Origin: Planctomycetota bacterium
Lineage (GTDB): Bacteria > Planctomycetota > MHYJ01 > JACPRB01
Direction of reading: 5' to 3'
Length of the DNA stretch: 64,000 nucleotides
Assembly (NCBI GenBank): GCA_016209705.1
Contig: JACQVR010000065.1
Coordinates: 965-64,964 of the forward strand
A model generated the notes under the pieces. That model saw only the letters and a program-made list of their open reading frames with translations. It did no database searches and was not told where the DNA came from. Both the position numbers and the translations under genes were made by a program. This document shows positions 2,719 to 36,192 of this stretch, one piece after another. Numbering within the stretch: the stretch's first letter is position 1; each line of letters starts with the position of its first letter.

Positions 2719-2863
2719 AAGCGTGTCGAGAAATTCAAGGAGATGTGGAGATATAGGGGATGTAGGAGATAAAACCACGATTCGTGGGGAGAACAGCTCC
2801 ATATCTCCGCTATCCCAACAATCTCCTAGGGAATGCGCCAAGGGTGATTCGCGGGAGGAAGCC

Positions 2864-6667: not shown

Positions 6668-6683
6668 TGGCAAGAAGCTTGCA
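6668..6683 (+). promoter_or_regulatory. Putative sigma-54 (-24/-12) promoter TGGCAA-N5-TTGCA upstream of tetraheme cytochrome/ResB/CcsA/ACIII-like operon
   Basis: tggcaagaagcttgca matches TGGCAC-N5-TTGCW with one mismatch; the predicted TSS falls ~2 nt before ATG 6696, which conflicts with the GGAGA RBS at -9. Confidence 0.4.
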
Positions 6684-9321: not shown

Positions 9322-10130
9322 GCGCGTTCTTCGCCGAAAGGCCCCTCGTTCTGGCGATTCTCGTCGCCCACGGGATGGCGTTGCTCCTTTGGACGGCCGG
9401 CGCCGTTTTGAAGAAGAAAGGCCTGCGGGTGGGAGCCGGAGTCGTGTTCGGAGTCGCCTTCCTTCTCAACACGGCGGTGATCGCCCAGCGCTGGATCGAG
9501 GCGGGGCGGGCGCCGTTCAAGACGCTGTACGAAACGCTGCTCTTTTATCCGTGGTGCGTGGCGTTGGTAACGCTGGTTCTCCTCGCCCTTTATCGCCTGG
9601 GCGTCTTGATCCCTTTCGCTTCGGCGGCGTGCGCGGGAGGACTCCTCTACGCCGCGTCGCGGCCGGATGTCGAGATCGTCAATCTTCCGCCGGCGCTTCA
9701 GAGCGGATGGTTCGTGCCTCACGTGGTGACGTACTTCGTGGCGTACGCGGCGCTCTTCGCGTCGTTCGCGCTCTCGCTTCTGGCGCTCGTTCGTCCGGCG
9801 TGGAAATCGGAAGGCGGCGAGGCGGGATTCGAGGAGTACGCCCATCGCGCCGTGATGTTCGGTTTCGCGGCGCTCACCATGGGCCTGGTCATGGGCGCGA
9901 TATGGGGCAAGGAAGCCTGGGGCGATTACTGGTCCTGGGATCCCAAGGAGAACTGGGCGCTGGTGAGCTGGCTGGCGTACCTGATCTATCTCCATCTGCG
10001 CCTGGTGAAAGGTTGGCGCGGGCGTCCCGCGCTCGTGGTCTGTCTCCTGGCCTTTGTCGCGGTCGTCTTCACGTATCTGGGGATGAGCTCGCTTCCCTCT
10101 GCATCGGATAGCCTGCATGTTTACCAGTAG
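9318..10130 (+). CDS. ccsA: Cytochrome c assembly protein CcsA/ResC (System II heme lyase subunit)
   Basis: WWD-domain motif WGDYWSWDPKENWALVSWLAYLIYLH; multiple TM helices; translationally coupled to resB. Confidence 0.85.
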   Translation: MSAFFAERPLVLAILVAHGMALLLWTAGAVLKKKGLRVGAGVVFGVAFLLNTAVIAQRWIEAGRAPFKTLYETLLFYPWCVALVTLVLLALYRLGVLIPFASAACAGGLLYAASRPDVEIVNLPPALQSGWFVPHVVTYFVAYAALFASFALSLLALVRPAWKSEGGEAGFEEYAHRAVMFGFAALTMGLVMGAIWGKEAWGDYWSWDPKENWALVSWLAYLIYLHLRLVKGWRGRPALVVCLLAFVAVVFTYLGMSSLPSASDSLHVYQ

Positions 10131-10632
10131 GAAGACCTTGATCGTCGTCGGAATGGCGGCGCTGACGAGCGCCGCGGTCGTGGCGCAGATGACGGGCCGC
10201 GGCGCGAGCGATGTGACGCAGCCGCTGGCGTTCAATCACAAACGCCACATCGAAGAAGGCATGAGTTGCCTGGACTGCCACAAGGGGGCCGACCAGCGGG
10301 CCGAGGCCGGGTTTCCTCCGATCCGGAGCTGTCTCTTGTGCCACTCGGAAGCCAAGGGAACCCATCCCGACGAACCCAAGATCCGGGAATTCGCGGAGCG
10401 CAAGGAGTCCATCCCATGGATTCGGGTGAACCGCATGCCGGGCCATGTCTATTTCTCCCACGCGGCCCACGTGGCGTACGCCAAGATGGACTGCCGCGAA
10501 TGCCACGGAGAGATGAAGGACCGCACCGAGCCCGTCACCCGGTCTCAGGTGGACCATTTGAACATGAACCGGTGCATGGCCTGTCACGACTCGAAAGGGG
10601 TCAGCACCGATTGCCTGCGGTGTCACAAATGA
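10117..10632 (+). CDS. Pentaheme cytochrome c, membrane-anchored (ActA/QrcA-like)
   Basis: CLDCH, CLLCH, CRECH, CMACH, CLRCH; N-terminal anchor/signal MFTSRKTLIVVGMAALTSAAVVAQ; stop overlaps next start (ATGA at 10629-10632). Confidence 0.8.
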   Translation: MFTSRKTLIVVGMAALTSAAVVAQMTGRGASDVTQPLAFNHKRHIEEGMSCLDCHKGADQRAEAGFPPIRSCLLCHSEAKGTHPDEPKIREFAERKESIPWIRVNRMPGHVYFSHAAHVAYAKMDCRECHGEMKDRTEPVTRSQVDHLNMNRCMACHDSKGVSTDCLRCHK

Positions 10633-13049
10633 ACCAGGAACGCGAGACGAAGTGGGGCCGGCGGGAATTCCTGACCGCGGCGGGCGCCGCCGCGGGAGGG
10701 CTCACGCTGGCGGGTTGTTCCGAGAAGGGAGATCCCTACGCCTTGGAGAAGTCGGGGGTTCCCGGGGAGTCCACGTGGAGCCGCGGCGAGGAGAAGTGGA
10801 TCGCCACCGCCTGCGGCATGTGTGCGGCGGGATGCGGCATTCGCGTGCGGGTGGTCGAAGGCCGGGCGGTGAAGATCGAGGGCCATCCGGATTGTCCGCT
10901 GAACCGCGGCGGCGTCGGACCCAAAGGTCAATCGGGACTACAACTGTTGTACCATCCGGACCGGATCCGCGGGCCCTTGCGTCGCGACGGCGCCAGAGGA
11001 TCGGGAAGCTGGAAGCGGGTTTCGTGGGATGACGCCCTGGGAGAGATCGGACGCGCGCTTCGCGAGCTGCGCTCCCAGGGGGAATCGCGCGGCGTGGTCG
11101 TCCTCGACGGCGAACCGCGGGGGATGATGCCGCAGTTATGGGATCGCTTTCTCGAGGCGTACGGGAGCCCCAACCACATCGATCATCACTCCGCGACGGA
11201 CGGCGGAAAGGTCCTCGCGACGGCGTACATGCACGGCGTGCCCGAACTGCCCGCGTACGACTGGGAAAACACGCAGTATGTCCTCGGATTCGGCGCGAGC
11301 CTGTTCGAATCGTGGTGCCAGTCCATTCATTTCATGCGCGCGGCGGTCCACATGCGCCGCGGCGTCCCGGGCCGGCGGGCCAAATTTGTCCAGGTCTCGC
11401 CCCGCTTCTCGGTGACGGCCGCGCGCGCCGACGAGTGGGTGCCCATCGAGCCGGCCACGTACGGAGCCCTCGCGCTCGGCTTGGCGCACGTCTTGATCAA
11501 GGAAGACCTCTACGACGAAGCGTTCGTCCGCGATCACACGTTCGGATTCGAGCCCTGGAAGGATGAGGAAGGGAAGGCGCATCGAGGGTTTCGAGATCTA
11601 GTTCTGGAGGACTATCCGCCCGATAAAGTATCCCCAATCACCGGCGTTCCCGTCGAGACGATCGTGCGCCTGGCGCAGGAAATGGCCGCGCATCGACCCG
11701 CCATTTCGCTGGCGGACGGTGGCGCGGCGGCCGCCACGAACGGATTGGGAACGGCCATGGCGATCCATGCCCTCAACGCTTTGCTGGGAAACCTGGAGCG
11801 TCCCGGAGGAATGATCGTCCAGCGGGCCGCGCCTCTGGCGCCATGGAAAGCCGTCGAGGCGGATGAAACGGCCCGAAAGAACCGGCAGGCGCCGAGAATC
11901 GACGGGACGGGAGACGGGGCTTGCCCGCTCGGAAGAGGTTTCATCCAGGGTCTTCCCGAAACCGTCCTCTCCGGAAATCCCTATCCCGTCAAAGCGCTGT
12001 TTCTTTATCGGTCCAATCCTGTTTTCTCGAAACCCGACGGCCGCCGCTGGGCGGAAGCGATCCAAAAGATCCCGCTCGTGGTGAGCTTTTCCCCCCTGCC
12101 CGATGAGTCCACGTTTTGGGCCGACTTCATCCTGCCGGAATCCACGTACTTCGAACGGTGGGAGATCGTCGAACCCGTCCCCAGCGTGGGCCATCCGGTG
12201 GTGACGTTTCGCCAGCCCGTCGTCGCCCCTCTGTACGACACGATGGCCGCGGGCGACGCGCTGATCCGTCTGGCGAACGCGGTGGGCTCTCCCGTGGCGG
12301 ACGCCTTCCCCTGGGAAAGCTACCGCAAGGCGCTCGAAGAGCGGATCAAAGGTTTCCTGGGAAAAGAAGGGTCGACGGCCGCGACGAAAATGTCGGCCTT
12401 GATCAAAGGACTTCAAAAGGATGGAGGATGGTGGGCTCCCGGATACTCGTTTGAGAAATGGGAGACGGCGTTTCCTACCCCCTCGGGCAAGTTCGAGTTT
12501 TATTCCCGGGAGATCGCCGGTCGGCTCGCGAAGGCGTTCCCGGATGCGGCCGCGCTGGAAAAGCATCTCGCCGGCGCGGGTGTGGCCACGCGCGGGGACG
12601 ACCTGTGCCTTCCTCATTGGGAGCCTCCGCGCTTTTCCGGCAGCGCCGGCGCCTATCCGTTCGTTCTCGTGGTTTATCGAGGGATCAACTACGCGGAAGG
12701 CGGCGTCCGCCACATCCCGGGGCTCCGTGAACTTCCCGGCTCGGGCCGCCTGACGTGGAAGGAGCGCATCGAATTGAACCCCGAGGATGCGCGCCACCTG
12801 GGCATCGACGACGGCACGCCGGTGCGGGTTGAATCTCCCGCGGGCGTGCGCGTTTTGTACGCTCAAATATTTGCGGGAGTTCGTCCCGGGACCGTTGCGC
12901 TTCCGCTCGGTCACGGACCTTGGCCCCCTGAGCCTACCTTGCAGGTCGCCGGCGGCTACGGCCTTCTGGACAATCTGAGCGATCCCTTGGGAGGCATCCT
13001 GGCGCTCCAGGGAACGCGGGTACGCATCCTCAAGGAGGAAGGGGTATGA
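10629..13049 (+). CDS. Molybdopterin-oxidoreductase (MopB) family catalytic-like subunit with Tat signal and N-terminal 4Fe-4S motif (ActB1/PsrA/QrcB-like)
   Basis: ATG 10629 (ORF-track upstream extension lies inside the cytochrome gene); twin-arginine GRREFLTAAGAAAGGLTLAGCS; CGMCAAGCG...HPDCPLNRG MopB FeS-binding N-terminus; ~807 aa. Confidence 0.8.
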   Translation: MNQERETKWGRREFLTAAGAAAGGLTLAGCSEKGDPYALEKSGVPGESTWSRGEEKWIATACGMCAAGCGIRVRVVEGRAVKIEGHPDCPLNRGGVGPKGQSGLQLLYHPDRIRGPLRRDGARGSGSWKRVSWDDALGEIGRALRELRSQGESRGVVVLDGEPRGMMPQLWDRFLEAYGSPNHIDHHSATDGGKVLATAYMHGVPELPAYDWENTQYVLGFGASLFESWCQSIHFMRAAVHMRRGVPGRRAKFVQVSPRFSVTAARADEWVPIEPATYGALALGLAHVLIKEDLYDEAFVRDHTFGFEPWKDEEGKAHRGFRDLVLEDYPPDKVSPITGVPVETIVRLAQEMAAHRPAISLADGGAAAATNGLGTAMAIHALNALLGNLERPGGMIVQRAAPLAPWKAVEADETARKNRQAPRIDGTGDGACPLGRGFIQGLPETVLSGNPYPVKALFLYRSNPVFSKPDGRRWAEAIQKIPLVVSFSPLPDESTFWADFILPESTYFERWEIVEPVPSVGHPVVTFRQPVVAPLYDTMAAGDALIRLANAVGSPVADAFPWESYRKALEERIKGFLGKEGSTAATKMSALIKGLQKDGGWWAPGYSFEKWETAFPTPSGKFEFYSREIAGRLAKAFPDAAALEKHLAGAGVATRGDDLCLPHWEPPRFSGSAGAYPFVLVVYRGINYAEGGVRHIPGLRELPGSGRLTWKERIELNPEDARHLGIDDGTPVRVESPAGVRVLYAQIFAGVRPGTVALPLGHGPWPPEPTLQVAGGYGLLDNLSDPLGGILALQGTRVRILKEEGV

Positions 13050-13867
13050 CGGAGCGCTCAGCCAACTTTGAAAAACCGTCGCGGCGAGGCGTGCTCGGGG
13101 CGATTCTCGGAGCACTGAGTTCCCCGATCGTCCTTTCCAGGCGGCTCTTCGCCGCGGCGGCTCGCCGGAAAATCAAGTGGGGAATGGTCATCGATCTGGA
13201 CAAGTGCACGGGATGCCGGGGGTGCGCCGCGGCGTGCCGGGCGGAGAACAACATCGCCACGGCCGGGCCCGAACGGGCCGAAGAAGGGCGCGGGATCTAC
13301 TGGATGGACCTGCTCACCGTGGAGGAGGGAGAATACCCCAACCTCCGCTCCCAGTTCATTCCCACGCCGTGCAATCACTGCGAGAACGCGCCGTGCGTGA
13401 AGGTCTGCCCGGTGGGCGCGACTTACATTAATGAGGAAGGAATCGTCGCTCAGATCTGGGCACGCTGCATCGGGTGCCGCTATTGCACGACGGCATGCCC
13501 TTACACGCGCCGGTACTTCAACTGGCAGGCGCCGTCATGGCCGGAGGAAGATCGGCAGCGTCTCAATCCCGACGTGGCCACGCGCCCCAAAGGCGTCGTC
13601 GAAAAATGCACGTTCTGTCACCATCGGATCCGCGCGGCGCGCGAGTCCGCCCGCGCGGAGGGGCGGTTGCTGTCCGATGCCGACGTGCGAAAGCTGCCGG
13701 CGTGCGCGCAATCCTGCCCCGCGGAAGCGATCGTCTTCGGGGATCTGAACGATCCGGAGTCTGAGGTGTCGCGCCTGGCCGCCAGCCCGCGGGCTTTCCG
13801 ATTGCAAGAGGAACTGGGCACGCATCCCAAGGTGGTCTATCTGCGGGAGGCCAAATGGCGGGAATAG
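13046..13867 (+). CDS. 4Fe-4S ferredoxin-type subunit (PsrB/NrfC/ActB2-like), Tat-like N-terminus
   Basis: SRRGVLGAILGA; Cys clusters CTGCRGCAAAC, CNHCENAPCVKVCP, CIGCRYCTTACP, CTFCHH, CAQSCP. Confidence 0.85.
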   Translation: MTERSANFEKPSRRGVLGAILGALSSPIVLSRRLFAAAARRKIKWGMVIDLDKCTGCRGCAAACRAENNIATAGPERAEEGRGIYWMDLLTVEEGEYPNLRSQFIPTPCNHCENAPCVKVCPVGATYINEEGIVAQIWARCIGCRYCTTACPYTRRYFNWQAPSWPEEDRQRLNPDVATRPKGVVEKCTFCHHRIRAARESARAEGRLLSDADVRKLPACAQSCPAEAIVFGDLNDPESEVSRLAASPRAFRLQEELGTHPKVVYLREAKWRE

Positions 13868-13872
13868 GAGCC

Positions 13873-15207
13873 ATGGAAATCGAGGAGCCCAGGTCGCCGA
13901 GGTTCACGTTCGAGGTGCAACCGATCTTCGAGCCGCTGCGGAGAACAGGGGCGGGATTTTATTGGGCGGCCGCGGCTCTGCTGGCCGTGGTGGCCTTTGG
14001 GGTTTACGCCTATGTGCGGCAGTATGTTTACGGCCTGGGCGTGACCGGCATGAACCGGCCCATGTACTGGGGCGTGTACATGGCGAACTTCGTCTTCTTC
14101 ATCGGCATCTCGCACGCGGGTACGCTCATTTCGGCGATCTTGCGGGTATCGGGAGCGGAGTGGAGGCGGCCGGTGACCCGCTGCGCCGAGGTGATCACCG
14201 TATTCGCCCTCATCTTCGGCGCCCTCTCGGTAATCCTGGATTTGGGCCGTCCCGACCGGCTCCTGAACGTGCTGCGGCATGGCCGCCTTCAGTCGCCCAT
14301 CCTGTGGGACGTTTGCTGCATCAGCACCTACCTCACGGGAAGCCTCATCTATCTTTATCTCCCGCTCATCCCGGACATGGCGATCTTGAGGGACCGAAAG
14401 GAAGGGCGAGTGTGGCTCTATCGGTTCCTCGCCATCGGTTACCGCGGGACGGCGGGGCAAAAGAAGCGCCTCGAATTCTGGATCGCCGTCATGGCCATCC
14501 TGATCATCCCGATCGCCGTCTCGGTGCACACGGTCGTCTCCTACATCTTCGCCACGACGCTCCAGCCCGGCTGGCACAGCACGATCTTCGGCCCCTATTT
14601 CGTCGTGGGCGCGATTTTCTCGGGGTTGGCGGCGCTCATGATCGCCATGGCGATCATCCGTCGCGGATTCCGTCTCGAAGGGGTCCTCAAGGACATTCAC
14701 TTCAACAATCTGGGACTGATCCTGCTGGTGATGACCTGTCTCATGATCTACTTCACGTTCAACATCTATCTGGTCGAGATCACCGGCAACGAACCTTTGA
14801 TCATGGCGTCGGTGCTGGCCAAGGTCAACGGACCGTATGCCGTGCCGTTTTGGGGGATGATCGTCGGCGGCATGATCGTCCCGGCCATCATTCTGGCTTT
14901 TCCCAAGGGACGCACCGTGACCGGGTGCGTCATCGCCTCGGTCTTGATTCTCGTGGCGATGTGGGTGGAGCGGTTCCTGATCGTAGTCCCCACGCTGATT
15001 CATCCGCGCCTTCCCTGGACCGCAGGTTCCTACGCCCCCACCTGGGTCGAATGGGCGATCACGGCCGGGTGCCTGGCCGCCTTCGCGTTGCTGTACCTGC
15101 TGTTCACCAAGGTGTTCCCGATCGTCTCGATCTGGGAGGTCCAGGAGGGCATCGATGAAGCCATTCCCAAGGTGCGGGAACGGTTCAAGCACTACATGCC
15201 GGACTGA
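13873..15207 (+). CDS. NrfD/PsrC-family polytopic membrane quinone-interacting subunit (ActC-like)
   Basis: Multiple TM helices; NrfD-family pattern; RBS aggag before ATG 13873 (alternative ATG 13855 overlaps upstream stop). Confidence 0.75.
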   Translation: MEIEEPRSPRFTFEVQPIFEPLRRTGAGFYWAAAALLAVVAFGVYAYVRQYVYGLGVTGMNRPMYWGVYMANFVFFIGISHAGTLISAILRVSGAEWRRPVTRCAEVITVFALIFGALSVILDLGRPDRLLNVLRHGRLQSPILWDVCCISTYLTGSLIYLYLPLIPDMAILRDRKEGRVWLYRFLAIGYRGTAGQKKRLEFWIAVMAILIIPIAVSVHTVVSYIFATTLQPGWHSTIFGPYFVVGAIFSGLAALMIAMAIIRRGFRLEGVLKDIHFNNLGLILLVMTCLMIYFTFNIYLVEITGNEPLIMASVLAKVNGPYAVPFWGMIVGGMIVPAIILAFPKGRTVTGCVIASVLILVAMWVERFLIVVPTLIHPRLPWTAGSYAPTWVEWAITAGCLAAFALLYLLFTKVFPIVSIWEVQEGIDEAIPKVRERFKHYMPD

Positions 15208-15234
15208 TCTCCCGCGAAAAGGGGGTGATCGCAC

Positions 15235-16785
15235 GTGACGTTGAAGGCGCGAATCACCCTGCTGGTGCTTCTGGCGACCTTGTCGGAAGCGATCCTCCTC
15301 GGCGTCATCGCGTACAACGGAGTCAGCAGCGTCTCTCGCAATTCCTTCGAATTGAGGCGGATCGTGTCGGTGATCGAGGAAACGAGGGCGCTCAATGCGC
15401 TGCTGTCCCATCTTTCGGATCCCGTCGAGCATGTGCTCAACGGCGGCCGCGACGCTCGCGAGCGGTTCCTCGGTTCCATGGACGATCTCCAGCGCAAGGT
15501 CGCGGGTTGCGCGGCCGCCACCTGTCACGGATACGACAAGCAGCCGCCCCGCATGGCGGGCGAGATGCTGCGCAGTCTCCAATCGATTCGGGCCGACGGG
15601 ACGCGCATCCTCTCCGCGTATCAGCCGGGCGATCCTCCGCCGCTGGCGGAGTGGGCCGAAGGAGTCGACCGTCCCGCGCGCCTGATTTCCCGCGCGACCG
15701 AACAGATGGCGGGAACGCTCATGAACCGCGCCCGCGAGGTCGACGCCGCCTCTCGGGAGACCGATCAGGCCTCGATCCTACTGGTGACGTTCGCCACGCT
15801 CTTCTGCATCGCCCTGTCGGTCGCGCTGGCTCGTCCCCTCGCGCGCGGCATGACCCGCCCGCTGGCGGGCTTGGTCGAGCAGACGCATCGGATCGCGGAG
15901 GGCAACTTCGAGATCCGCGCGAAGGAATCCGGACCGCCCGAGATCGCGACGCTGGCCCGCTCCTTCAACGCGATGCTCGACGCCCTCGGTCATTATCGGG
16001 ATGAATTGCTGGCCCATCGCAAGGAGTTGGAACTGACGGTCGAGGAACGCGTGACCGAACTGCGCCGCAAGGATGAAGACTTGAAGCGGGCCGGACGATT
16101 GGCGAGCGTGGGGCTGGCCGCAGGCGAAGTGGCCCACGATCTCAACAACCCTTTGACGAACATCCTGGTCAATTCCGACGTCCTCCTCGAATCGGCGGAC
16201 ACCCCCGGTCGTTCCCGGGGCCTCGTCGAGGACATCCGCCGGGACGCGGTCCGCTGCCGGGAAATCGCGGCCGGCATCCGGACGTTGAGCCGCGAGCCGG
16301 GGATCGAGATGACGTCGTGTGCGATCAAGGACTTGATCGAGGAGGCCATCCGCATGCTCCGGTTCAAATGGGGACCGCGGCGGATCGCCGTGAAGTACGA
16401 CTCGAACAACGGGCCGGCGGCATGTTTGTGCAGTCGTCCAGGGATGCTGCAATTGCTGGTGAACCTCATTGAGAACGCCATCGACGCGAGTCCCGACGAC
16501 GGCCTCGTGGAAATCCGCCTGCGTGCTTCGGAGGCCGCGATCGTCCTGGAGGTGCAGGATTACGGAGCGGGAATCCCGCCGGAGGCACGCAGATCCCTCT
16601 TCCGGCCTTTCTTCACGAGCAAGGCCGGGGGCACGGGGCTCGGGCTGGCGATCAGCCGGCGCATCGCGGTGCAGCATGAGGGATCGATCGAGTTCGAAAC
16701 GCGCACGGCCGCCGAGGATCCTGAGCGTCACGGAACGCTCTTCCGCGTGACGATCCCCTGCGGACGGGCTGCTGAGGTATCGTGA
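15235..16785 (+). CDS. Sensor histidine kinase (two TM/periplasmic sensor, HAMP, HisKA, HATPase_c)
   Basis: GTG start after aaggggg RBS; HAMP ARSFNAMLDALGHYRDEL; H-box EVAHDLNNPLTNI; G-boxes GTGLGLAISRRI. Confidence 0.8.
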   Translation: MTLKARITLLVLLATLSEAILLGVIAYNGVSSVSRNSFELRRIVSVIEETRALNALLSHLSDPVEHVLNGGRDARERFLGSMDDLQRKVAGCAAATCHGYDKQPPRMAGEMLRSLQSIRADGTRILSAYQPGDPPPLAEWAEGVDRPARLISRATEQMAGTLMNRAREVDAASRETDQASILLVTFATLFCIALSVALARPLARGMTRPLAGLVEQTHRIAEGNFEIRAKESGPPEIATLARSFNAMLDALGHYRDELLAHRKELELTVEERVTELRRKDEDLKRAGRLASVGLAAGEVAHDLNNPLTNILVNSDVLLESADTPGRSRGLVEDIRRDAVRCREIAAGIRTLSREPGIEMTSCAIKDLIEEAIRMLRFKWGPRRIAVKYDSNNGPAACLCSRPGMLQLLVNLIENAIDASPDDGLVEIRLRASEAAIVLEVQDYGAGIPPEARRSLFRPFFTSKAGGTGLGLAISRRIAVQHEGSIEFETRTAAEDPERHGTLFRVTIPCGRAAEVS

Positions 16786-16808
16786 AAGAAAGGGTTTCGT
16801 AAAGAGGT

Positions 16809-16887
16809 GGAACCGCCAAAACGCCGAATCGCCAAACGAGATCCACCGCAAGAAGTACCCGATGGCGCTTTAGCGCTTTGGCGGTTC
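16809..16887 (+). promoter_or_regulatory. Inverted repeat GAACCGCCAAA (16810-16820) / TTTGGCGGTTC (16877-16887) in kinase-regulator intergenic region; left arm is part of a ~27-nt motif also present at 30046-30088
   Basis: Read directly: gtggaaccgccaaaacgccgaatcgccaaa ... gctttggcggttcatc. Confidence 0.45.
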
Positions 16888-16900
16888 ATCTGAATAAAAC

Positions 16901-18334
16901 ATGGAAACGGAAGCGGCGATCCTGATCGTGGATGACGAGGAAGGCACGCGCGCCTCGCTCGCGCGCGCTCTCGATCAGCCGGGGTATCGGGTGCGCGGAG
17001 TGGAGTCCGCCGAAGCGGCGCTGGCCGCTCTGGAGAAAGAATCGTTCGACGTCATCCTCTGCGACATCCGCCTTGGAGGCATGGATGGGTTGGAACTCCA
17101 GAAGCGGATTCGCGCGGATCATCCCGACGTTCCCGTGGTGATGATCACGGCGTACGCCGCCGTCGAAACCGCGGTGCGCGCGCTGAAGCAGGGCGCCTAT
17201 GATTATCTGGCTAAACCTTTTTCCGCGGAAGAGGCGCGCAGCGCCGTCCACCGCGCCCTGGAGAGCCGCCGCCTGCGGCTGGAAAACGACTCGCTCCGCG
17301 AAGTGCTTCGCGGGTTCGCGGGCGAAGTGTGGGTCGGGAATTCCGCGCCGATACGGCGGCTTTATGAGGAGGCGGCCAAAGTGGCGCGCAGCAACGCCAC
17401 CGTCTTCATCAGCGGCGAAAGCGGAACCGGCAAGGAGATCCTGGCGCGATACCTGCACGCGCGCAGTCTTCGGGAGCGAGGGATCTTCGTGGCGCTCAAC
17501 TGCGCGGCCCTTCCGGAGAACCTGGCCGACTCGCAGATGTTCGGCCATGTGCGCGGGGCGTTCACCGGAGCGGTGGCGGATCAGCGCGGCCATCTCGAGC
17601 TGGCTCACGGGGGCACGCTCTTCCTGGATGAGATCGCGGACCTCAAGCTCGACGTCCAAGCCAAGCTGCTGAGGGTGCTGGAGGAACACCACTTTCGGCG
17701 GCTGGGTTCCGAGCGGGAGATCTCCGTGGATGTGCGGGTCCTCGCCGCCGCCCAGCGGAGTCCCGAACAGTTGGTCAAGGAGGGGAAGCTGCGGGAGGAC
17801 CTTTACTATCGGCTCGGGGCGATCCATCTCGAGGTCCCGCCGCTGCGCGAACGGCCGGGCGACATCGCGGATCTGGCGCTGCACTTCCTCGCGCGCTTCT
17901 CGCAGGAGCTCAAGAAGCCCGTCGAAGGATTGGAGCCGGAAGCGCTGAGTTTGCTCGAGAAGTATCCCTGGCCGGGGAACGTGCGGGAGCTCAAGAACGT
18001 GATGGAACGGGCGGCGCTCTTCGTCCAGGCGGGGAGCCGCGTCGGGATCGCGGATTTTCCGGAAAAGATCCGCCGGACTCCGGGCACGGCGCTCTTCGTG
18101 GTGGAGGCTCCTCAGCCGCTCCCGTTGCGGGAATTGTCCCGGCGCTACATCCGCCACGTGTTGGATTTGTGCGACGGCAACCAGGCGAAGGCCGCGCGCC
18201 TCCTGGAGATTTCCCCTTCCACGCTCTGGAGACATTTTTCAAAGACCGAGGCGGCCGCCTTGAAAGATGCCAAGGAGGCTACGCCCGGCTCGCGGGACAA
18301 GGTGCGGACGCCGCATCGTCCGGTGGGTCCATGA
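16901..18334 (+). CDS. Sigma-54-dependent response regulator (NtrC family: receiver + AAA+ + HTH)
   Basis: ILIVDDEEGTRASLARAL...CDIRLGGMDG receiver; [15 protein letters not shown] Walker A; GAFTGA motif; ESELFGH-like; C-terminal HTH. Confidence 0.85.
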   Translation: METEAAILIVDDEEGTRASLARALDQPGYRVRGVESAEAALAALEKESFDVILCDIRLGGMDGLELQKRIRADHPDVPVVMITAYAAVETAVRALKQGAYDYLAKPFSAEEARSAVHRALESRRLRLENDSLREVLRGFAGEVWVGNSAPIRRLYEEAAKVARSNATVFISGESGTGKEILARYLHARSLRERGIFVALNCAALPENLADSQMFGHVRGAFTGAVADQRGHLELAHGGTLFLDEIADLKLDVQAKLLRVLEEHHFRRLGSEREISVDVRVLAAAQRSPEQLVKEGKLREDLYYRLGAIHLEVPPLRERPGDIADLALHFLARFSQELKKPVEGLEPEALSLLEKYPWPGNVRELKNVMERAALFVQAGSRVGIADFPEKIRRTPGTALFVVEAPQPLPLRELSRRYIRHVLDLCDGNQAKAARLLEISPSTLWRHFSKTEAAALKDAKEATPGSRDKVRTPHRPVGP

Positions 18335-18341
18335 ATCTCCC

Positions 18342-18383
18342 GAAATAAACTTCCCCGCGGCTTGCCGCGGGGAAGTTTATTTC
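18342..18383 (+). terminator. Perfect 19-bp stem hairpin (gaaataaacttccccgcgg ctt g ccgcggggaagtttatttc) after regulator gene
   Basis: Perfect palindrome read directly; no long T tract, so a terminator or a regulatory hairpin. Confidence 0.5.
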
Positions 18384-18524
18384 ACATTCATGGGAAACGT
18401 GTCACGCTCGTGTGAAAAGCGCCTTTTCGCCATTCTGGACGTTTGATTTCATTTTTCGTCCCCTTCGGCTCGATTCCTTGTTCCACCCATGGAACGTTGT
18501 CGCCCTTGAGGGGCTTCCAGAGCA

Positions 18525-18540
18525 TGGCAAACGTTTTGCT
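18525..18540 (+). promoter_or_regulatory. Sigma-54 promoter TGGCAA-N5-TTGCT ~57 nt upstream of decaheme cytochrome gene
   Basis: tggcaaacgttttgct matches TGGCAC-N5-TTGCW (1 mismatch); immediately downstream of a sigma-54 activator gene; leader ~46 nt with RBS ggaaggag. Confidence 0.6.
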
Positions 18541-18596
18541 CTACCCCAAGAACACGGCAGAGGTTGTTTACTCCAAGACTCCGGAAGGAGAACGAC

Positions 18597-20714
18597 ATGG
18601 GAAGATCCAAGTATTTCCTTCTGCTTGTGGCGATGTTGCCTCTATTGCCGGCGGCGTCCTGCGGCGGGGAGGACGGAGCCGCAGGCGCTCCGGGCGAGCC
18701 AGGATCGGGACTGACAGGCCCATATCGGGAATTGAGCGCCTCCCTGGCCATCTCGCAGCCGGCCAATGGAACCCATTTTGTGATGGGCGAGCAGGCGGTG
18801 GTCACGGTCATTGTGAAAGACCAATATGACAAAGCATTCTCCCTGAGCGACCTTTCCCAGCTCAGCCTTTATGTATATGGTCCGCAAGAAACGACGAAGA
18901 CCATGACGGCGGTGAATCTGCTCAACGCCTCCACGGATCGTTCCCAAAGGCCGCATCATTACATTGATCTGCTCACGAATCCTGAGGCGCAGTTCGCGAG
19001 CGGGGTCGTGACCTATGCACTCCGGCCGGTCTCCGACGAGGAGCCGGGGACATACATCGTCACCATGCGCGCTGTCCTCAAGGATGCGCCGCTTGAGCAA
19101 GCGATGCCATGCGTCGAGTTCCAGCTCGGAACCGCTATTGCGGAGACTCAGATCATAGATAAGGAGAAGTGCGCCAAATGCCACAAGGGCGCCGCCAGCG
19201 GTCAGTTCTACTTCCACCACGTGGATCCTCGTCAAGTGGGTCAGAGCGGAAGCCCCTCGATAGACTCGCTGCCGGTGATGACCTGCAAGAGCTGTCACAA
19301 CACGGAGGGCTATGCGGCGTACCGCGATCCCGCCAATCCGGACAACCGCATCCCGGATCCCATTGTGAAGCGGGTGCACGGGGTTCACATGGGCAAGCAC
19401 TTGGAGAGCGCCGCCAATCAGACGGTATTTGCGGACTATCTGGACGTGGAGTTTCCCGCTAATGTCAAGAACTGCACCGCCTGTCACTCCGATGACCGCT
19501 GGAAAACCAAGCCGTCGCAGCTTGCCTGCGGTGCCTGCCACGACAATATCTGGTTCGGCGATCCGGCCGCCATGCCGGAGACCGCGGAAGCGCACCCCGG
19601 CGGGCAGCAGGCCGACGATTCCTTGTGTGCGAGCTGCCACCCTGCCGACATCGGCGGAAGCAAGCCGGTGGCGGTGGCGCACCAGATCGAGCCGCCGGCG
19701 TTCCAGAATACGGTGGAACTGAGCATGACTCCTCCGGCCAACGGGGAGTACTACGTGGCCGGTGAAACGCCTCAGGTGACGATCACGATCCGGGATGCGG
19801 CCAGCGGCGCGACGATCAATCCGGCCGCCATTGTCGAGCCGGCCGATTCGCAAGCCGTGCAATCCTTCGAGTGGAGACGGGCGAACTTGTTTGTGTCCGG
19901 ACCCAGAAAGCGCACGATGCCCGTCCTTACAACGGAGGCCATCAACCCCGATCCCACCCACTCGTACGCCAACAATGACTTCCGCGTACGAATCGACCCG
20001 GCCAATGAGGATCTGAGGGTGACACGGTCTTCGACCGCGATCACCTATCAATTGGCGGATGTGGCGGATTTAGAGCCCGGCACGTATACCGCCTTCGTCG
20101 AGATCATGCCGGCTGCTCCTCTCGGCGGCTGGGGTCTGATCAACTTCCAAGTGAAGACCGCGACGGAAGAGCCCATGGTCGCGACCAACTGCATCGATTG
20201 TCACGACGACGCTCGAATGCACGGCAGTTACTTCGCGGTGCAATTCAAGCCCGACATCTGCAAGAACTGCCACGACTATGAGCGTCAGATGCCGGACCGG
20301 ATCACGTGGACCGACCGCAACGCAGGATACGGCGCCGCTCCCCTGGCCAGACGGGTCCACGGCGTCCACTTCGGGCATTACCTCGACAAGCCGGAAGAAG
20401 TGCACGCGACTTACGATTTCTCAGGAGTCATCTTCCCGCAGGACGTGAGAAACTGCGTCAAGTGCCACTCGGAAACGGATGCGTGGAAAACCGAACCGTC
20501 GCGGGTGGCCTGTCTTGCGTGCCACGACAAAGACGCGGCCATTACCCACGCCACGGTAAATACATTGGATGCGACGCCTGCCGACCCGTGGAACGGCGAT
20601 GAGGTGGAAAGTTGCAAAGTATGCCACGGAGCCGGGCGAGAATTCGCTCCCGACAAGGTGCACAATATCTGGGATCCCTATAAGCCGCCCTATCCACGAG
20701 AACCGGCCGAGTAA
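18597..20714 (+). CDS. Second decaheme c-type cytochrome lipoprotein (~705 aa), structural paralog of 2864..5731 with duplicated pentaheme modules
   Basis: ATG 18597 after ggaaggag RBS; signal + lipobox LLPAASCGG; 10 CxxCH (CAKCH, CKSCH, CTACH, CGACH, CASCH, CIDCH, CKNCH, CVKCH, CLACH, CKVCH); repeated KRVHGVHMGKHL / RRVHGVHFGHYL. Confidence 0.8.
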   Translation: MGRSKYFLLLVAMLPLLPAASCGGEDGAAGAPGEPGSGLTGPYRELSASLAISQPANGTHFVMGEQAVVTVIVKDQYDKAFSLSDLSQLSLYVYGPQETTKTMTAVNLLNASTDRSQRPHHYIDLLTNPEAQFASGVVTYALRPVSDEEPGTYIVTMRAVLKDAPLEQAMPCVEFQLGTAIAETQIIDKEKCAKCHKGAASGQFYFHHVDPRQVGQSGSPSIDSLPVMTCKSCHNTEGYAAYRDPANPDNRIPDPIVKRVHGVHMGKHLESAANQTVFADYLDVEFPANVKNCTACHSDDRWKTKPSQLACGACHDNIWFGDPAAMPETAEAHPGGQQADDSLCASCHPADIGGSKPVAVAHQIEPPAFQNTVELSMTPPANGEYYVAGETPQVTITIRDAASGATINPAAIVEPADSQAVQSFEWRRANLFVSGPRKRTMPVLTTEAINPDPTHSYANNDFRVRIDPANEDLRVTRSSTAITYQLADVADLEPGTYTAFVEIMPAAPLGGWGLINFQVKTATEEPMVATNCIDCHDDARMHGSYFAVQFKPDICKNCHDYERQMPDRITWTDRNAGYGAAPLARRVHGVHFGHYLDKPEEVHATYDFSGVIFPQDVRNCVKCHSETDAWKTEPSRVACLACHDKDAAITHATVNTLDATPADPWNGDEVESCKVCHGAGREFAPDKVHNIWDPYKPPYPREPAE

Positions 20715-20721
20715 GCACGTG

Positions 20722-20754
20722 AAAAAAAAGCCCGTCGTGAAGACGGGCTTTTTT
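20722..20754. terminator. Rho-independent (bidirectional) terminator: A-tract, GCCCGTC stem, GTGAA loop, GACGGGC, T6
   Basis: aaaaaaaagcccgtcgtgaagacgggctttttt read directly after cytochrome stop. Confidence 0.8.
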
Positions 20755-20795
20755 GATGGTTCGGCCTCAACGAGGCCGGAGCGTTACTTCAGGCC

Positions 20796-21107
20796 TCAGC
20801 CCGCGAACCGGCGGTCGCTTTCGGGGGCCTCGGTGCCTTCCTTTGCGGCCTTGACGGCCTCGACGACCGTTTCCTGGGTGGCTTTCTTGGTCCCCTTCAT
20901 GACCGCGAGTCCGCCGCGATAGATCAGCTTACCGGTCTTGTCGAGGACGAACGTTGCGTTGACCTGCTTCGCGCCGAATTTGTATTCCTTCCAGTCGTAC
21001 GCCTCAAAGGCGATGTCGGGGACCACTTCGCCCAGCTTCAGGTCGTCCGCCCGCGGCGCGGCCGCCATGGCCAGGAGCGCCACCACGCCGGCTACAGACA
21101 GTCTCAT
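20796..21107 (-). CDS. Small secreted hypothetical protein (redoxin/TlpA-like flanks without CxxC core)
   Basis: Signal peptide MRLSVAGVVALLAMAAAP; segment VNATFVLDKTGKLIYRG resembles redoxin C-terminus but no CxxC. Confidence 0.3.
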   Translation of the reverse strand: MRLSVAGVVALLAMAAAPRADDLKLGEVVPDIAFEAYDWKEYKFGAKQVNATFVLDKTGKLIYRGGLAVMKGTKKATQETVVEAVKAAKEGTEAPESDRRFAG

Positions 21108-21117
21108 GTCGTTTTCC

Positions 21118-21246
21118 TTAGATGAACCGGTCCGGTAGTTCGCTCTTGCCCACCCTTCTCCGGCCGTACAGGATCAGGAATTCCGCCCGTCGGGTTGCGG
21201 CCATCCGTTTCAGGCTCGCCAGCTCCCGCTCCCGGTCAAGCCACAT
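21118..21246 (-). pseudogene. N-terminal 43-codon fragment of an AAA/Arch_ATPase-type ATP-binding protein, truncated by stop
   Basis: Hand translation of minus strand: MWLDRERELASLKRMAATRRAEFLILYGRRRVGKSELPDRFI*; characteristic GRRRVGKS P-loop region then TAA. Confidence 0.4.
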
Positions 21247-21788
21247 GAGCTTCTCCTAAGTAACTTACTTGAAAGTAAACCATATTCCATGGGCGCCTCC
21301 CGGTCCAGTTTTTGCATCGAGGCCCGGCAGAAAGAACCCGGGGGAGTGCCGGTCACTGTTTCAAGCGCGTTCTCGATCCGACCGAGGTGTCCAAGAATTC
21401 AGGGAAGCGGCGCTTTCGAGGCCGCGATGGCGGCGAACCTTTCCGCTCGTTCGAGTCGATGGCCGACTACCGGCGATGGTGCGAGGAAAACCTTCCTGCG
21501 TGGCTCGGCTATGGCCGCTCGATTTAAGTGCCGGCAGGCGCGCGAGATCGCGGACATCTTCACCAAACGCGGCGCGACACGCCATCAGAGAGGATCGCTT
21601 ACAGGCGGTCCGCCGAAAGACCGCTGCAAAACGCAGCGTCGCAATCCTCTGCCATGCATGTTGTTATTCATATCATTTTAATTTGCACGGTTCCCTCCAG
21701 ACGCCGTTGATAAGTCTTTTGGCGGTTGTATGATTGCAACTACTTGATGACCAGTCGGTTGCAAGTTTAGCTCTGCCCACTCCCTGCG

Positions 21789-21804
21789 CGGCACGCCCGT
21801 TGCA
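21789..21804 (+). promoter_or_regulatory. Sigma-54-type promoter CGGCACG-N4-TTGCA upstream of small-TM / NrfD-like operon
   Basis: cggcacgcccgttgca: GG-N10-GC spacing correct, first T replaced by C; predicted TSS ~21815, then RBS aaggggg and ATG 21848. Confidence 0.45.
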
Positions 21805-21847
21805 CTATCGGGAATAGAAGATGAAGAAACAAGAAAGGGGGCGTGCC

Positions 21848-22132
21848 ATGACCGCCATGCAAAAGGGAACCCCGTGGGTCGTGGGCCTGCTGACGTTCGT
21901 GTTCGGCCTGAGCATCGGACTGAGCTGGTATACGTACGGCTATCTGGATTGGGCGACCGTGAGGAAGATGGCCATGATGCTCATCCCGCTGCTGGCCGCA
22001 GCCGTGGTCGTGATGCTGTGGCCGGACAAGGAGGAAAAAGAAAAGAAGGAACGCCCCGACCTTCGTGCTCGGCTCGCCGGGCGGAGACGCCGTGAACTTC
22101 AGGAGGTGGGCAAGGACAAGGAAAGGAGCTAG
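21848..22132 (+). CDS. Small two-TM membrane protein with lysine/glutamate-rich tail (hypothetical)
   Basis: ATG 21848 with aaggggg RBS (ORF track start 21821 also possible); two hydrophobic helices. Confidence 0.45.
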   Translation: MTAMQKGTPWVVGLLTFVFGLSIGLSWYTYGYLDWATVRKMAMMLIPLLAAAVVVMLWPDKEEKEKKERPDLRARLAGRRRRELQEVGKDKERS

Positions 22133-22134
22133 CC

Positions 22135-22314
22135 ATGCCGGTTCTTGCGGAACGTCCCGTTCGCAAAGCGCCCCGCCGGAAGGCGCCTCCGCCGGTCCGG
22201 GAAGGCAAGGCTTTCTACATCGTGACCACGGTGTTGGGCGTCCTCATGTTCCTGCTCGCGATCGGATCGGTGGGGATGATGGTGGCCGCCCAACTGCTCC
22301 TGATCAACTGGTAA
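22135..22314 (+). CDS. 59-aa single-TM protein (hypothetical), below ORF-track length cutoff
   Basis: ATG 22135 after aaaggag RBS; MPVLAERPVRKAPRRKAPPPVREGKAFYIVTTVLGVLMFLLAIGSVGMMVAAQLLLINW*. Confidence 0.45.
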   Translation: MPVLAERPVRKAPRRKAPPPVREGKAFYIVTTVLGVLMFLLAIGSVGMMVAAQLLLINW

Positions 22315-22327
22315 GAGGATCTCATCC

Positions 22328-23920
22328 ATGAGCGTATCGACAGTGACGGATGTGGTCAGGACGCTGGAGCTGGAAGACCGGACGAATGACGGAGCCGCAG
22401 GCGGAGGTCCGCCGGAGAGCCGGATCGGAGTCGGCCGCTTCGGAACCCGCTGGTGGGCCTTTTCCGCCATGCTGGCGGCCGTCGTGACGGCCAGCGTTGC
22501 GGCGTATGCCCGACAACTTGCCCGCGGCTTGGAAGTCACCGGACTGGGAAACATCGGGTCCGGCGGCGCGCCGTGGGGGCTGTACATCACGTTCGACGTC
22601 TACTTCGTCGGGGTGAGTTTCGCCGGGATCACGCTGGCGGCGCTCATCCGCCTTTTCGACCTCTCCAAACTGCGGCCCGTTTCCCGCATGGCGGAACTCC
22701 TGACGATCGTCTCGCTGATGATGGGCGCCTTGAGCGTCATCGTCGATTGCGGGCGCCCCCTGGAGGCGCTCGTGAACATTCCTCGCTTCGCCCGAACGGC
22801 CTCGCCCTTCTTCGGAACGTTCAGCTTGGTCGTCGGCGGATATCTCTTCGCCAGCCTGGTGTACTTCTTCCTGTCCGGACGGTCCGACGCCGCCGCGTGC
22901 GCTCAGCCGAAGGCGTGGCTGCGCGGTTTTCATCGCCTCTGGGCTTCGGGGTACCAAGGATCTCCGGCCGAAAAGCGGCGCCATCATTGCGCTTCGTTCT
23001 GGCTCGCCTTGACGATCCTGCCGCTCCTGGTGACCGCCCATTCCACGCTGGGCTTCATCTTCGGCATCCAAGGGGGGCGGCCGGGATGGTTCAGCGCGCT
23101 CCAGGGACCCAGTTTCGTGGTGATGGCGGGCCTGTCCGGTACGGGGTTGCTCATCGTGATGGCGGCGGTCCTGAGACGCAGCCTGCGCCTCGAGGCGCAT
23201 TACGGGCCGCCCGTTTTCCGCTGGCTCGGAAACCTCCTGATGGTCCTGACGATGATCTACCTCTACTTCATGATCGCCGAGGAATTGACGGCGACTTACG
23301 CATCACCGTATGCCGAATCAAAAGTGGCGCACGCGAGGACGCTGGGCGTCTACGCGCCTCTCTATTGGACGATCGTGGCCTTTCTGGCGGGTACGGTCGC
23401 CATACTCTTCATCCAATTCGTGCACGGCGGAGCGTCCATCGCGTGGACCGCGGCCGCGGGCCTCTTGGGGAATGTGGCGGCGGTGCTCAAGCGGTACCTG
23501 CTCATCGTGTCGCCGCAGACGCATGGGCTTTTCGTCCCCACGGAGGGGAGCTATGCGCCGAGCGGCGTGGAGATCGCCGTCATCCTGGGATTGCTGGCTT
23601 TGGGAGCGCTCTTCATCACGATATTCGTCAAGGTGTTTCCCATCGTTCCCCTCGCAGGAAGCGGGCACCCCGCGGAGCCGGATCCCACCGAGCCGCGGCG
23701 AAAGGGCCCCAGTCGATGCCTCATGTTCTGGGCGATGCTGGCAGTGGGGGTGGGGTTGGCCGCGATAGGATTCCTGGGATCGTCTCGGTTCGGCACGGAA
23801 CCGTATCTCGATCCCGTGATCCCTTACAGCCCGGTTCTCTTCATCGCGGGAGTGATGCTCGCGTTCACTTCGGCGATCGTTTATGAAACGGCGCCCTTGA
23901 GAATCCCGACTCGACGCTGA
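22328..23920 (+). CDS. Second NrfD/PsrC-family polytopic membrane protein (ActF-like?), 530 aa with C-terminal extension
   Basis: Paralogous to 13873..15207 (e.g. FDVYFVGVSFAGITLAALIRL vs ANFVFFIGISHAGTLISAILRV; SVIVDCGRP vs SVILDLGRP). Confidence 0.7.
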   Translation: MSVSTVTDVVRTLELEDRTNDGAAGGGPPESRIGVGRFGTRWWAFSAMLAAVVTASVAAYARQLARGLEVTGLGNIGSGGAPWGLYITFDVYFVGVSFAGITLAALIRLFDLSKLRPVSRMAELLTIVSLMMGALSVIVDCGRPLEALVNIPRFARTASPFFGTFSLVVGGYLFASLVYFFLSGRSDAAACAQPKAWLRGFHRLWASGYQGSPAEKRRHHCASFWLALTILPLLVTAHSTLGFIFGIQGGRPGWFSALQGPSFVVMAGLSGTGLLIVMAAVLRRSLRLEAHYGPPVFRWLGNLLMVLTMIYLYFMIAEELTATYASPYAESKVAHARTLGVYAPLYWTIVAFLAGTVAILFIQFVHGGASIAWTAAAGLLGNVAAVLKRYLLIVSPQTHGLFVPTEGSYAPSGVEIAVILGLLALGALFITIFVKVFPIVPLAGSGHPAEPDPTEPRRKGPSRCLMFWAMLAVGVGLAAIGFLGSSRFGTEPYLDPVIPYSPVLFIAGVMLAFTSAIVYETAPLRIPTRR

Positions 23921-30507: not shown

Positions 30508-30658
30508 CGCGTCCTCGGCCGTTCTCGAACTATGTATGGGGTGTTTCGTGACGTCACCGGCCCTTGTCGGGTGCGTCATCATGAAAGATGAACATCGGGA
30601 TTCCAGCAACGCACGTGCCATCCGCGAGGACCCTTGCGGAGGGCGCCTGAATCGGCTT

Positions 30659-30699
30659 GGAGGCGGAATTTTTCCGAGGCGGAGGCGGAATTTTCCCGA
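30659..30699. repeat. Tandem direct repeat GGAGGCGGAATTTTTCCGA / GGAGGCGGAATTTTCCCGA
   Basis: Read directly; located between dynamin-like gene stop and next gene start on minus strand. Confidence 0.6.
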
Positions 30700-32073: not shown

Positions 32074-32126
32074 TGTACTCGCCCGCGGCGGATCGGGAAC
32101 CGGAATTCGGGGCGCGGGCCTCCGGA

Positions 32127-36190: not shown

Positions 36191-36192
36191 GA

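Follow-up and report, generated by a model that had tools for sequence, protein, structure and literature searches.

Which genes does a two-component regulator serve when it is encoded directly in front of a c-type cytochrome gene that has a promoter of its own? We address this question for positions 15,235–20,714 of a 64,000-nucleotide (nt) stretch of DNA, hereafter the window, which form the regulatory part at the end of a cluster of respiratory genes in a metagenome-assembled Planctomycetota genome and which encode, on one strand, a transmembrane sensor histidine kinase, an NtrC-class sigma-54 activator and a decahaem cytochrome (Table 1). A first-pass annotation, made from the DNA letters without database searches, had described this interval as a compact arrangement leading from sensor to target. 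The explanation that we favour, with a confidence slightly better than even, is a different one: a kinase that senses through haem at a putative C-X4-C-H site and its sigma-54 activator act on a conserved operon with an NrfD-like gene, in front of which a cytochrome gene with a sigma-54-type promoter has been inserted. How cytochromes for extracellular electron transfer are regulated is little known beyond Shewanella and Geobacter, and metal reduction is not an established trait of Planctomycetota. If true, sigma-54 control of an MtrC-like cytochrome would provide a testable handle on when such organisms deploy surface cytochromes.

The conserved target of the regulator pair

The two regulatory genes are what they had first been taken for, a kinase and an NtrC-type sigma-54 activator. 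The kinase gene begins with a GTG codon and its product exhibits HAMP, HisKA and HATPase_c domains in Pfam, with EVAHDLNNPL as H-box; by this domain content it is a transmembrane sensor kinase of the HAMP-HisKA-HATPase type. The activator exhibits Response_reg (114 bits), Sigma54_activat (217 bits), AAA_lid_14 and HTH_8 (41 bits) domains, a GAFTGA motif at residue 219 and the receiver aspartate within CDIRLGGMDG, and is, as judged from these domains, an NtrC-class response regulator and enhancer-binding protein. All NCBIfam equivalog cut-offs were missed by this protein, and thus it is not AtoC, NtrC or ZraR.

Related loci were collected in part by a genome scan using a profile of seven sensor domains, the species representatives of which exclude the window's own genome. 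Approximately 22 full-length kinase orthologues are available at 34–58% identity, those with a named source all being from Planctomycetes/Planctomycetota, and the activator is 63–78% identical to the partners of these orthologous kinases; one related locus, L010, belongs to a genome labelled Fibrobacteria. Ten related modules have sequence or gene calls downstream, and in each of them the kinase/activator pair leads into the same operon, encoding a membrane protein of about 90 residues (small1), a protein of about 57 residues (small2) and an NrfD-like protein of about 535 residues: this order is present in L001, L003, L005, L007, L011, L045 and L046, on the P0015 contig and in the kinase's own module in L044. 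A cytochrome gene 3' of the kinase/activator pair was found in none of the ten. Comparison of the loci thus shows the small1-small2-NrfD operon, which is also present downstream in the window, to be the evolutionarily conserved target predicted for the regulator pair. In L045, a kinase of the same family is encoded directly 3' of MtrC/MtrF-like cytochromes. Positions 1–14500 of L044 hold three consecutive modules of activator, small membrane protein(s) and NrfD-like protein, two of them beyond the kinase's own; one module also has a phosphonate-binding-like periplasmic protein and its own kinase, and the array looks like a repeated, uncharacterised regulatory and respiratory unit.

The DNA in front of small1 carries two conserved features. 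In 8 of 11 modules, a -24/-12 site scoring at least 11.5 precedes the start of small1 by 15–130 nt (binomial p = 3e-12, at a background of 0.17 such sites per kb per strand). De novo motif finding in the regions 5' of the small1 promoters, which made no use of position, returned the element TGCA[GA]AATGAA[AG]G, with the best matches falling 106–115 nt 5' of the promoter motif, in either orientation, in six of the nine promoter-bearing modules; for six of nine best matches to lie within 10 nt, p is 3.5e-5 in a uniform model. In L001 it is the second-best match that falls in the 106–115 nt zone, and several modules exhibit a second element site at approximately -150 to -169. Such a layout is consistent with a tandem enhancer, and we infer that the element is the binding site of this activator family. 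No canonical GG-N10-GC site precedes small1 in L003 (6497–6720) and L007 (10050–10315); both keep inverted repeats of the ATTGC/GCAAT type in this region (ATTGCATTACGCAAT and CATTGCAACCTGCAATG). There is a lesson of method in this result: adjacency alone had mis-assigned the primary target of the regulator, and phylogenetic footprinting led to a promoter and enhancer, both conserved, at a distance of 3.5 kb.

The cytochrome gene between activator and target operon

The gene that adjacency had pointed to encodes a protein with exactly ten CXXCH motifs and a lipoprotein-type signal peptide (…LPAASC). It had been called the second decahaem cytochrome, which is correct: the first, encoded at 2702–5731 (1009 aa, MtrC/MtrF-like), also has ten CXXCH motifs by our count. 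Pfam family PF22113 (Mtrc-MtrF_II-IV) is matched at 93.9 bits (cut-off 30) and Shewanella MtrF (3pmq) with an E-value of 4e-11 over residues 225–691, whilst the score on TIGR03507 (OmcA/MtrC) is 164.7 bits at a cut-off of 209.3. In its ten haem motifs, its lipoprotein signal and its MtrC/MtrF II/IV domain the protein resembles MtrC, MtrF and OmcA from Shewanella; it differs from them in staying under the OmcA/MtrC cut-off and in being encoded alone, without mtrA/mtrB. The Shewanella mtr genes are not known to be controlled by sigma-54.

The promoter motif of this gene, TGGCAAACGTTTTGCT, does have the canonical sigma-54 spacing ascribed to it, GG-N10-GC, and is correctly placed and above chance expectation: it scores 12.75/13.25 in our own weighting, scores of at least 12 occur at a background of 0.05 per kb per strand, and the chance of finding one in the 263-nt spacer in the right orientation is about 1%. 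The window has four exact copies of TGGCA-N6-TTGC where 0.36 would be expected (approximately 11-fold), a number reached by none of 100 shuffles. Three of the copies are close 5' of the start of a correctly oriented gene; the remaining one, at 30620–30605 on the minus strand, is about 95 nt before a small unverified open reading frame (ORF). A scan of 15000–21300 for sigma-70-like promoters found none, this being a weak scan since the sigma-70 promoters of planctomycetes are poorly defined. The ribosome-binding site GGAAGGAG (18583–18590) and the ATG at 18597 follow as first described, with the GC of the promoter 58 nt before the ATG; the leader would be about 46 nt long, as had been stated, if transcription starts approximately 11 nt past the GC, and the region 18550–18620 is unstructured (z +0.45). 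Taken as a -24/-12 element, the motif indicates that the cytochrome gene is probably transcribed by sigma-54 RNA polymerase.

Two terminators flank the gene. The hairpin behind the activator gene, reported at first as a perfect stem of 19 bp, is confirmed as such: its 20-nt arms are 100% complementary with 2 nt between them, in RNA they form 19 bp and a 4-nt loop, the 71-nt fold of 18330–18400 has a free energy (dG) of -39.3 kcal/mol (z -7.6, with 0/200 shuffles as stable) and the sequence is unique within the window. Being a good terminator, this hairpin leaves the cytochrome gene in need of its own promoter. With the second terminator after the gene (66-nt fold of 20705–20770, dG -32.7, z -5.8), there are terminators on both sides and the cytochrome gene is hence an insulated monocistronic unit. 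An Rfam scan of 18300–21900 gave nothing near a gathering score.

Between activator and target operon we find, besides the cytochrome gene, a short ORF with a secreted product, an AAA ATPase gene reduced to its N-terminal 42 codons (…YGRRRVGKSEL…) and approximately 550 nt of non-coding DNA. Neither of the two fragments has a Pfam match and both are absent from the orthologous loci; they look like rearrangement debris beside an inserted cytochrome gene. As the regulator pair is always placed before the small-small-NrfD operon in the relatives, the cytochrome gene appears as a recent insertion, and L001, with two unrelated minus-strand genes in the same spacer, indicates that this spot tolerates insertions. 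The comparison of gene orders thereby shows a lineage-specific monocistronic cassette between the activator gene and what would be its ancestral target. The cytochrome is identical to the HY716_08435 protein of a Planctomycetes bacterium metagenome-assembled genome, and its relatives (50–66% identity) are dispersed across several phyla, Chloroflexota, Verrucomicrobiota and Nitrospirota among them. An adjacent sigma-54 activator is absent for the four closest homologues whose contigs were read, and in L042 the homologue is preceded by a different two-component system, with a PAS kinase and LuxR-type regulator. No sigma-54 promoter is present 5' of the two closest homologues scanned (L042 and L043), and few of 25 more distant cytochrome loci, such as L028 (at -97) and L030 (at -72), have any sigma-54-like site. 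Footprinting through cytochrome homologues, using 29 metagenome loci and four contigs from other phyla, failed as the upstream regions could not be aligned.

Does the neighbouring activator nonetheless control the inserted gene? According to the first-pass annotation it binds within 18385–18525 and drives the cytochrome, so that kinase, activator and cytochrome constitute one dedicated unit, a model to which we accord somewhat less than even confidence. Part of it stands: the activator gene ends only 190 nt from the promoter on the same strand, the cytochrome has its own promoter, and activators often adjoin their targets, as does the second activator of the window, which likewise directly precedes a -24/-12 site and a target gene. 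The cluster is also functionally coherent, with its probable porin, 13-haem and decahaem cytochromes, ResB/CcsA and Qrc-like complex. In addition, the partial core AAAATGAAAT is common to the regions in front of the cytochrome and small1: AAAATGAWAT has exactly two copies in 64 kb, 18446–18455 and 21670–21679, both on the minus strand and 70–120 nt 5' of the respective promoter, the latter overlapping the small1 element, although the match was noticed only after the fact and the two copies are rich in A+T. What finds no support is the dedicated unit, as relatives pair these regulators with the NrfD operon and the activator-cytochrome arrangement is conserved in no related locus.

Several observations weigh against our favoured explanation, some of them also against this model. 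The pairing of the cytochrome with this regulator was seen in no other sampled genome, the closest homologues of the cytochrome having other regulators or none. The position-conserved element of the family is absent from 18385–18525, the best match within 260 nt of the cytochrome promoter reaching 8.4 bits versus 13–21 bits at the six promoters that have their best match about 110 nt away, and its place is taken by the palindrome GAAAAGCGCCTTTTC, which is unlike the element. Local alignments of 18335–18600 with the regions 5' of the sites at 6668, 21789, 30620 and 40890 were no better than with shuffled sequence. Related genomes encode many sigma-54 activators, L044 alone having three complete genes in 15 kb; rpoN is absent among the larger ORFs of the window that were scanned, and the organism is known solely from a metagenome. 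At the sensor end, the binding of haem is read from the sequence, and the C-X4-C-H motif may be a metal or disulphide site. With gene order not conserved, the element absent and homologues lacking the activator, adjacency is the main argument left for the link to the cytochrome. Even so, if one activator is to be named for the cytochrome promoter, the neighbouring one is, tentatively, the leading candidate.

Two further candidates for a shared enhancer were rejected: GGTTGCR is common before small1, but the window as a whole shows no enrichment and in L046 the sequence belongs to a terminator stem, while RRAACGTK repeats (18394, 18491 and 18530) are enriched across the window (26 versus 13) and not specific to promoters. 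The sequence GGAAAAWTNCG links only 6616 and 30686.

A serious alternative is that the cytochrome promoter is sigma-54-dependent and is fired by an activator encoded elsewhere, for instance through GAAAAGCGCCTTTTC, its adjacency to the kinase/activator genes being an accident of insertion. At 111 nt 5' of the promoter motif, the palindrome is as far away as enhancers typically are, and it is unlike the family element; the spacer has also received genes in L001, gene debris borders the cytochrome cassette, and there are several activators in related genomes and a second one in the window. However, no candidate for this other activator was identified, one short palindrome is weak evidence, and the shared 10-mer AAAATGAWAT together with the functional coherence of the cluster favours the local regulator; we regard this alternative as rather unlikely on balance. 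That the -24/-12 match is fortuitous, with the cytochrome gene being transcribed from an unrecognised housekeeping or extracytoplasmic-function (ECF)-type promoter or by leakage through the hairpin, would fit the homologues without a sigma-54 site, the weakness of the sigma-70 scan and the near-consensus sites also found inside genes, but is improbable given the enrichment and orientation of the exact sites, the low chance of such a score in the spacer, the typical distances of the promoter to ribosome-binding site and ATG, and a G+C-rich hairpin of 19 bp that blocks read-through.

The sensor domain and its C-X4-C-H motif

The kinase exhibits hydrophobic segments at residues ~7–27 and ~180–200 in its hydropathy profile, enclosing some 150 periplasmic residues, in agreement with the sensor region between two transmembrane (TM) helices noted at first. 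Its AlphaFold model (pLDDT 80.7) has helices at 3–68, 74–96, 104–128 and 137–221, and the models (pLDDT 81–82) display an up-down four-helix bundle that runs on into TM1, TM2 and HAMP and carries the C-X4-C-H motif on helix 2, at the end nearer the membrane. The highest-ranking structural matches are fragments of NarQ comprising sensor, TM and HAMP parts (5jgp, 5iji and 6xyn) and the four-helix bundles of chemoreceptors; these matches are weak (NarQ: E 0.016, TM-score 0.43, 12–14% identity). A PDB search with the sensor domain returned no sequence relatives, and Pfam and PDB searches detected none of the known haem domains in the kinase.

An alignment of 22 orthologues reveals C92, C97, H98 and M158 to be invariant and M107 to be near-invariant, whereas the four residues between C92 and C97 vary freely. 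We searched a profile of the periplasmic domain against 1.84 billion (1.84e9) representative proteins and obtained 50 matches, 37 of them below 1e-10: C-X4-C-H is kept in all kinase-like matches, and the matches without it are mostly long proteins aligned via short repeated stretches. Invariant spacing and trailing histidine combined with variable residues between the cysteines is the pattern of a haem-attachment motif, and C-X4-C-H haem sites are known from tetrahaem cytochromes c3. Together with the periplasmic location of the motif and the presence of ResB and CcsA in the same gene string, this conservation suggests that C-X4-C-H carries a covalently attached c-type haem, with Met158 or Met107 as residues that could provide the distal ligand. 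These data point to the kinase being a rare and previously undescribed helical c-haem sensor from a family of approximately 37 representatives. The first reading had left the ligand as possibly redox or metal, and with the invariant motif the guess of redox becomes far more specific.

The competing interpretation of the motif is a metal-binding site or a thiol/disulphide redox switch that attaches no haem. It draws on the canonical haem motif being CXXCH, as are all 42 of the motifs counted in five cytochromes of this cluster, on the failure to detect known haem domains in the kinase, and on the fact that clusters of Cys and His bind Zn and Cu as well. Against this stand the family-wide invariance of spacing and histidine around variable residues, the precedent of cytochromes c3, the two methionines available as possible distal ligand, and a periplasmic site with a System II maturation apparatus encoded in the same string, so that we consider a haem-free site unlikely, albeit less so than the accidental promoter discussed above.

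The sensor can be compared to two groups of known proteins. The sCache_haem/DUF3365/Tll0287 domains are extracytoplasmic sensors of kinases and chemoreceptors with a conserved c-haem motif as hallmark, which is the likeness to the kinase. In the c-haem domains of GSU0582 and GSU0935, CXXCH is placed on a helix inserted into a Cache/PAS-like alpha/beta fold (PMC12889525; PMC3831638), whereas the kinase is predicted by its model to be an all-helical bundle of the NarQ/Tar type with C-X4-C-H. PF11845 is not matched by the kinase in Pfam, and it is hence no member of the sCache_haem/DUF3365 family; it may work like these domains without belonging to them. With NarX and NarQ, the kinase shares the layout of TM1, four-helix bundle, TM2, HAMP and HisKA; unlike the kinase, which is paired with a sigma-54 activator, those two proteins need no cofactor to bind nitrate and have NarL-type regulators as their signalling partners. 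The NarQ-type four-helix bundle is not known to hold haem c in signalling proteins. If true, an all-helical haem-c sensor would give periplasmic haem sensors a second structural class next to the Cache type.

In the mechanism that we propose, ResB/CcsA from the same gene string would attach the haem to the kinase bundle, and this haem would either report the redox state of the periplasmic cytochromes or quinone pool, or bind a small ligand. The kinase would then phosphorylate the NtrC-class activator, leading to the opening of sigma-54 promoters, among them that of the conserved operon (21848–23920) through the promoter at 21789–21804 and the element at 21674–21687; for the cytochrome promoter, an activator would have to bind within 18385–18525. 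A wider statement, to which we give less credence than to this explanation of the locus, is that the family as a whole consists of mostly Planctomycetota helical c-haem redox sensors that switch on the NrfD module via activator and TGCAGAATGAAAGG enhancer, and here possibly also the cytochrome. The closest functional precedent is BccR (GSU0598) from Geobacter sulfurreducens, a sigma-54 response regulator needed for the induction of cbcBA at falling redox potential (10.1101/2021.04.15.440034). Both cases have an NtrC-class regulator adjoining a respiratory cytochrome operon with a -24/-12 promoter, but bccR is divergent from its target, which is a bc-type quinone oxidoreductase of the inner membrane and not an MtrC-like surface decahaem cytochrome. 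The system in the window has, moreover, a small-small-NrfD conserved target and a helical C-X4-C-H sensor, and is known from sequence alone. The circuit is of a known kind, a two-component system with sigma-54 control of respiratory genes, and its most original part is the helical sensor.

Gene setting and further sigma-54-type sites

Table 1. Positions of the features discussed, numbered from the first letter of the 64,000-nt window.
Feature	Position	Strand	Basis
Candidate -24/-12 site TGGCAAGAAGCTTGCA before the c554-ResB-CcsA-Qrc-like-kinase-activator string	6668..6683	+	exact TGGCA-N6-TTGC
Qrc/alternative complex III (ACIII)-like quinone-interacting complex	10117..15207	+	Pfam domains
Five-haem cytochrome subunit of Qrc-like complex	10117–10632	+	
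Molybdopterin-like subunit of Qrc-like complex	ORF 10266–13049	+	
4Fe-4S subunit of Qrc-like complex	13046–13867	+	
NrfD-type membrane subunit of Qrc-like complex	13855–15207	+	
Sensor histidine kinase (TM1, periplasmic four-helix bundle, TM2, HAMP, HisKA, HATPase)	15235–16785	+	Pfam
C92-A-A-A-T-C97-H98 codons, C-X4-C-H motif, putative covalent c-haem site	15508..15528	+	orthologue alignment
Structured kinase-activator spacer, 115 nt	16786..16900	+	fold dG -35.6 kcal/mol, z -2.5
NtrC-class response regulator/sigma-54 activator (receiver, AAA+ with GAFTGA, Fis-type helix-turn-helix)	16901..18334	+	Pfam
Intrinsic (bidirectional-type) terminator after kinase/activator genes	18342..18383	+	perfect palindrome, RNA fold
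Palindrome GAAAAGCGCCTTTTC, candidate enhancer, 111 nt 5' of promoter motif	18414..18428	.	read from sequence
AAAATGAAAT, partial match to element core	18446..18455	-	full-motif score 8.4 bits
-24/-12 sigma-54-type promoter TGGCAAACGTTTTGCT of cytochrome gene	18525..18540	+	motif match
Decahaem MtrC/MtrF-like lipoprotein cytochrome, 705 aa	18597..20714	+	CXXCH count, Pfam
Intrinsic terminator after cytochrome (A-run, GCCCGTC/GACGGGC stem, T-run)	20722..20754	+	fold
Short secreted ORF (20796–21107) and AAA ATPase N-terminal fragment (21118–21246)	20796..21246	-	translations
Conserved upstream element TGCAAATTAAAATG (family consensus TGCAGAATGAAAGG), predicted enhancer	21674..21687	-	de novo motif finding
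-24/-12 promoter CGGCACGCCCGTTGCA of target operon	21789..21804	+	motif score
Conserved target operon: small1 (membrane protein) 21848–22132, small2 22135–22314, NrfD-like 22328–23920	21848..23920	+	gene order, Pfam

The kinase and activator genes are the last of a string that starts with a tetrahaem c554-like protein and continues with ResB and CcsA (System II cytochrome c maturation) and the Qrc-like complex. For the genes of this complex, the top NCBIfam matches are QrcA, QrcC, QrcB/PhsA and DsrP, all under curated cut-offs (score/cut-off: QrcA 103.5/180, QrcB 273.7/440, QrcC 288.5/400, QrcD 45.8/570), and by these scores the complex is related to the Qrc menaquinone reductase without being a member. 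Its likeness to QrcABCD and alternative complex III lies in the pentahaem, molybdopterin-like, 4Fe-4S and NrfD-type subunits encoded 5' of the kinase, a position that Qrc-like genes also have in L001, L005, L010, L011 and L046. The second NrfD paralogue with its small membrane partners recalls ActC/ActF of alternative complex III; the difference is that this second NrfD module forms a separate operon, predicted to be under sigma-54 control. The NrfD-type proteins encoded at 13855–15207 and 22328–23920 each match the other's genes in related loci at ~30–37% identity, and alongside the pentahaem subunit and the small membrane partners they are reminiscent of the ActC/ActF pair.

Further 5' on the same strand, 320–5731 encodes a probable porin (a weak Porin_4 match), a 13-haem cytochrome (1702–2718) and the first decahaem cytochrome, a set resembling a porin-cytochrome conduit. 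In L007, a porin homologue is encoded 3' of the NrfD-like gene. A run of short imperfect repeats with units GAGTCGCG / GACTCGGGAC is present at 150–260 (plus strand), just 5' of the probable porin gene.

The spacer between the kinase and activator genes forms one long hairpin with the arms GAACCGCCAAA / TTTGGCGGTTC; it is absent from the orthologous loci, in which the two genes overlap or nearly abut.

The ATG at 6696 comes just 13 nt after the site at 6668, an odd spacing that leaves the function of the site uncertain. In L001 there is a strong comparable site, TGGCATCGTATTTGCT, before ResB-CcsA, and in L010 near-duplicate regulatory regions (2950–3200 and 4005–4255) precede small ORFs in front of Qrc-like genes, each with a shared upstream element TTGGCAAAAGCAGGATGNAAAATGGACTAATTGTCT, a sigma-54-like site TGGATCG..AATTGCT and a conserved leader. 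From these sites and regions, the circuit may be autoregulated. The sequence TGCAAATT at 6633 is the core of the small1 upstream element and has two exact copies in the window.

The second sigma-54 activator (40919–42271, within 40037–42271 on the minus strand) has GAFTGA at residue 218; 28 nt later follow a perfect TGGCACGCCGCTTGCA (40890–40875) and a gene for a universal stress protein (Usp). Two GAFTGA activators in the window imply that the organism encodes sigma-54 (rpoN). On the same strand, at 30605–30697, the perfect-class sigma-54 site TGGCACGTGCGTTGCT (30620–30605) comes after two direct repeats GGAAAA(A)TTCCGCCTCC (~30697–30659), and GGAAAATTACG, which is related to these repeats, is present 5' of the 6668 site.

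The region 32000–41000 contains antiporter genes of the Mrp/Mbh type (Proton_antipo_M, MbhD/E), has a G+C content of 0.68–0.72 and exhibits a strong A-over-T skew when compared to the remaining window. At 60535–63630 (minus strand), a single ORF of 1031 aa fuses PqqD-like, radical SAM/SPASM and methyltransferase domains.

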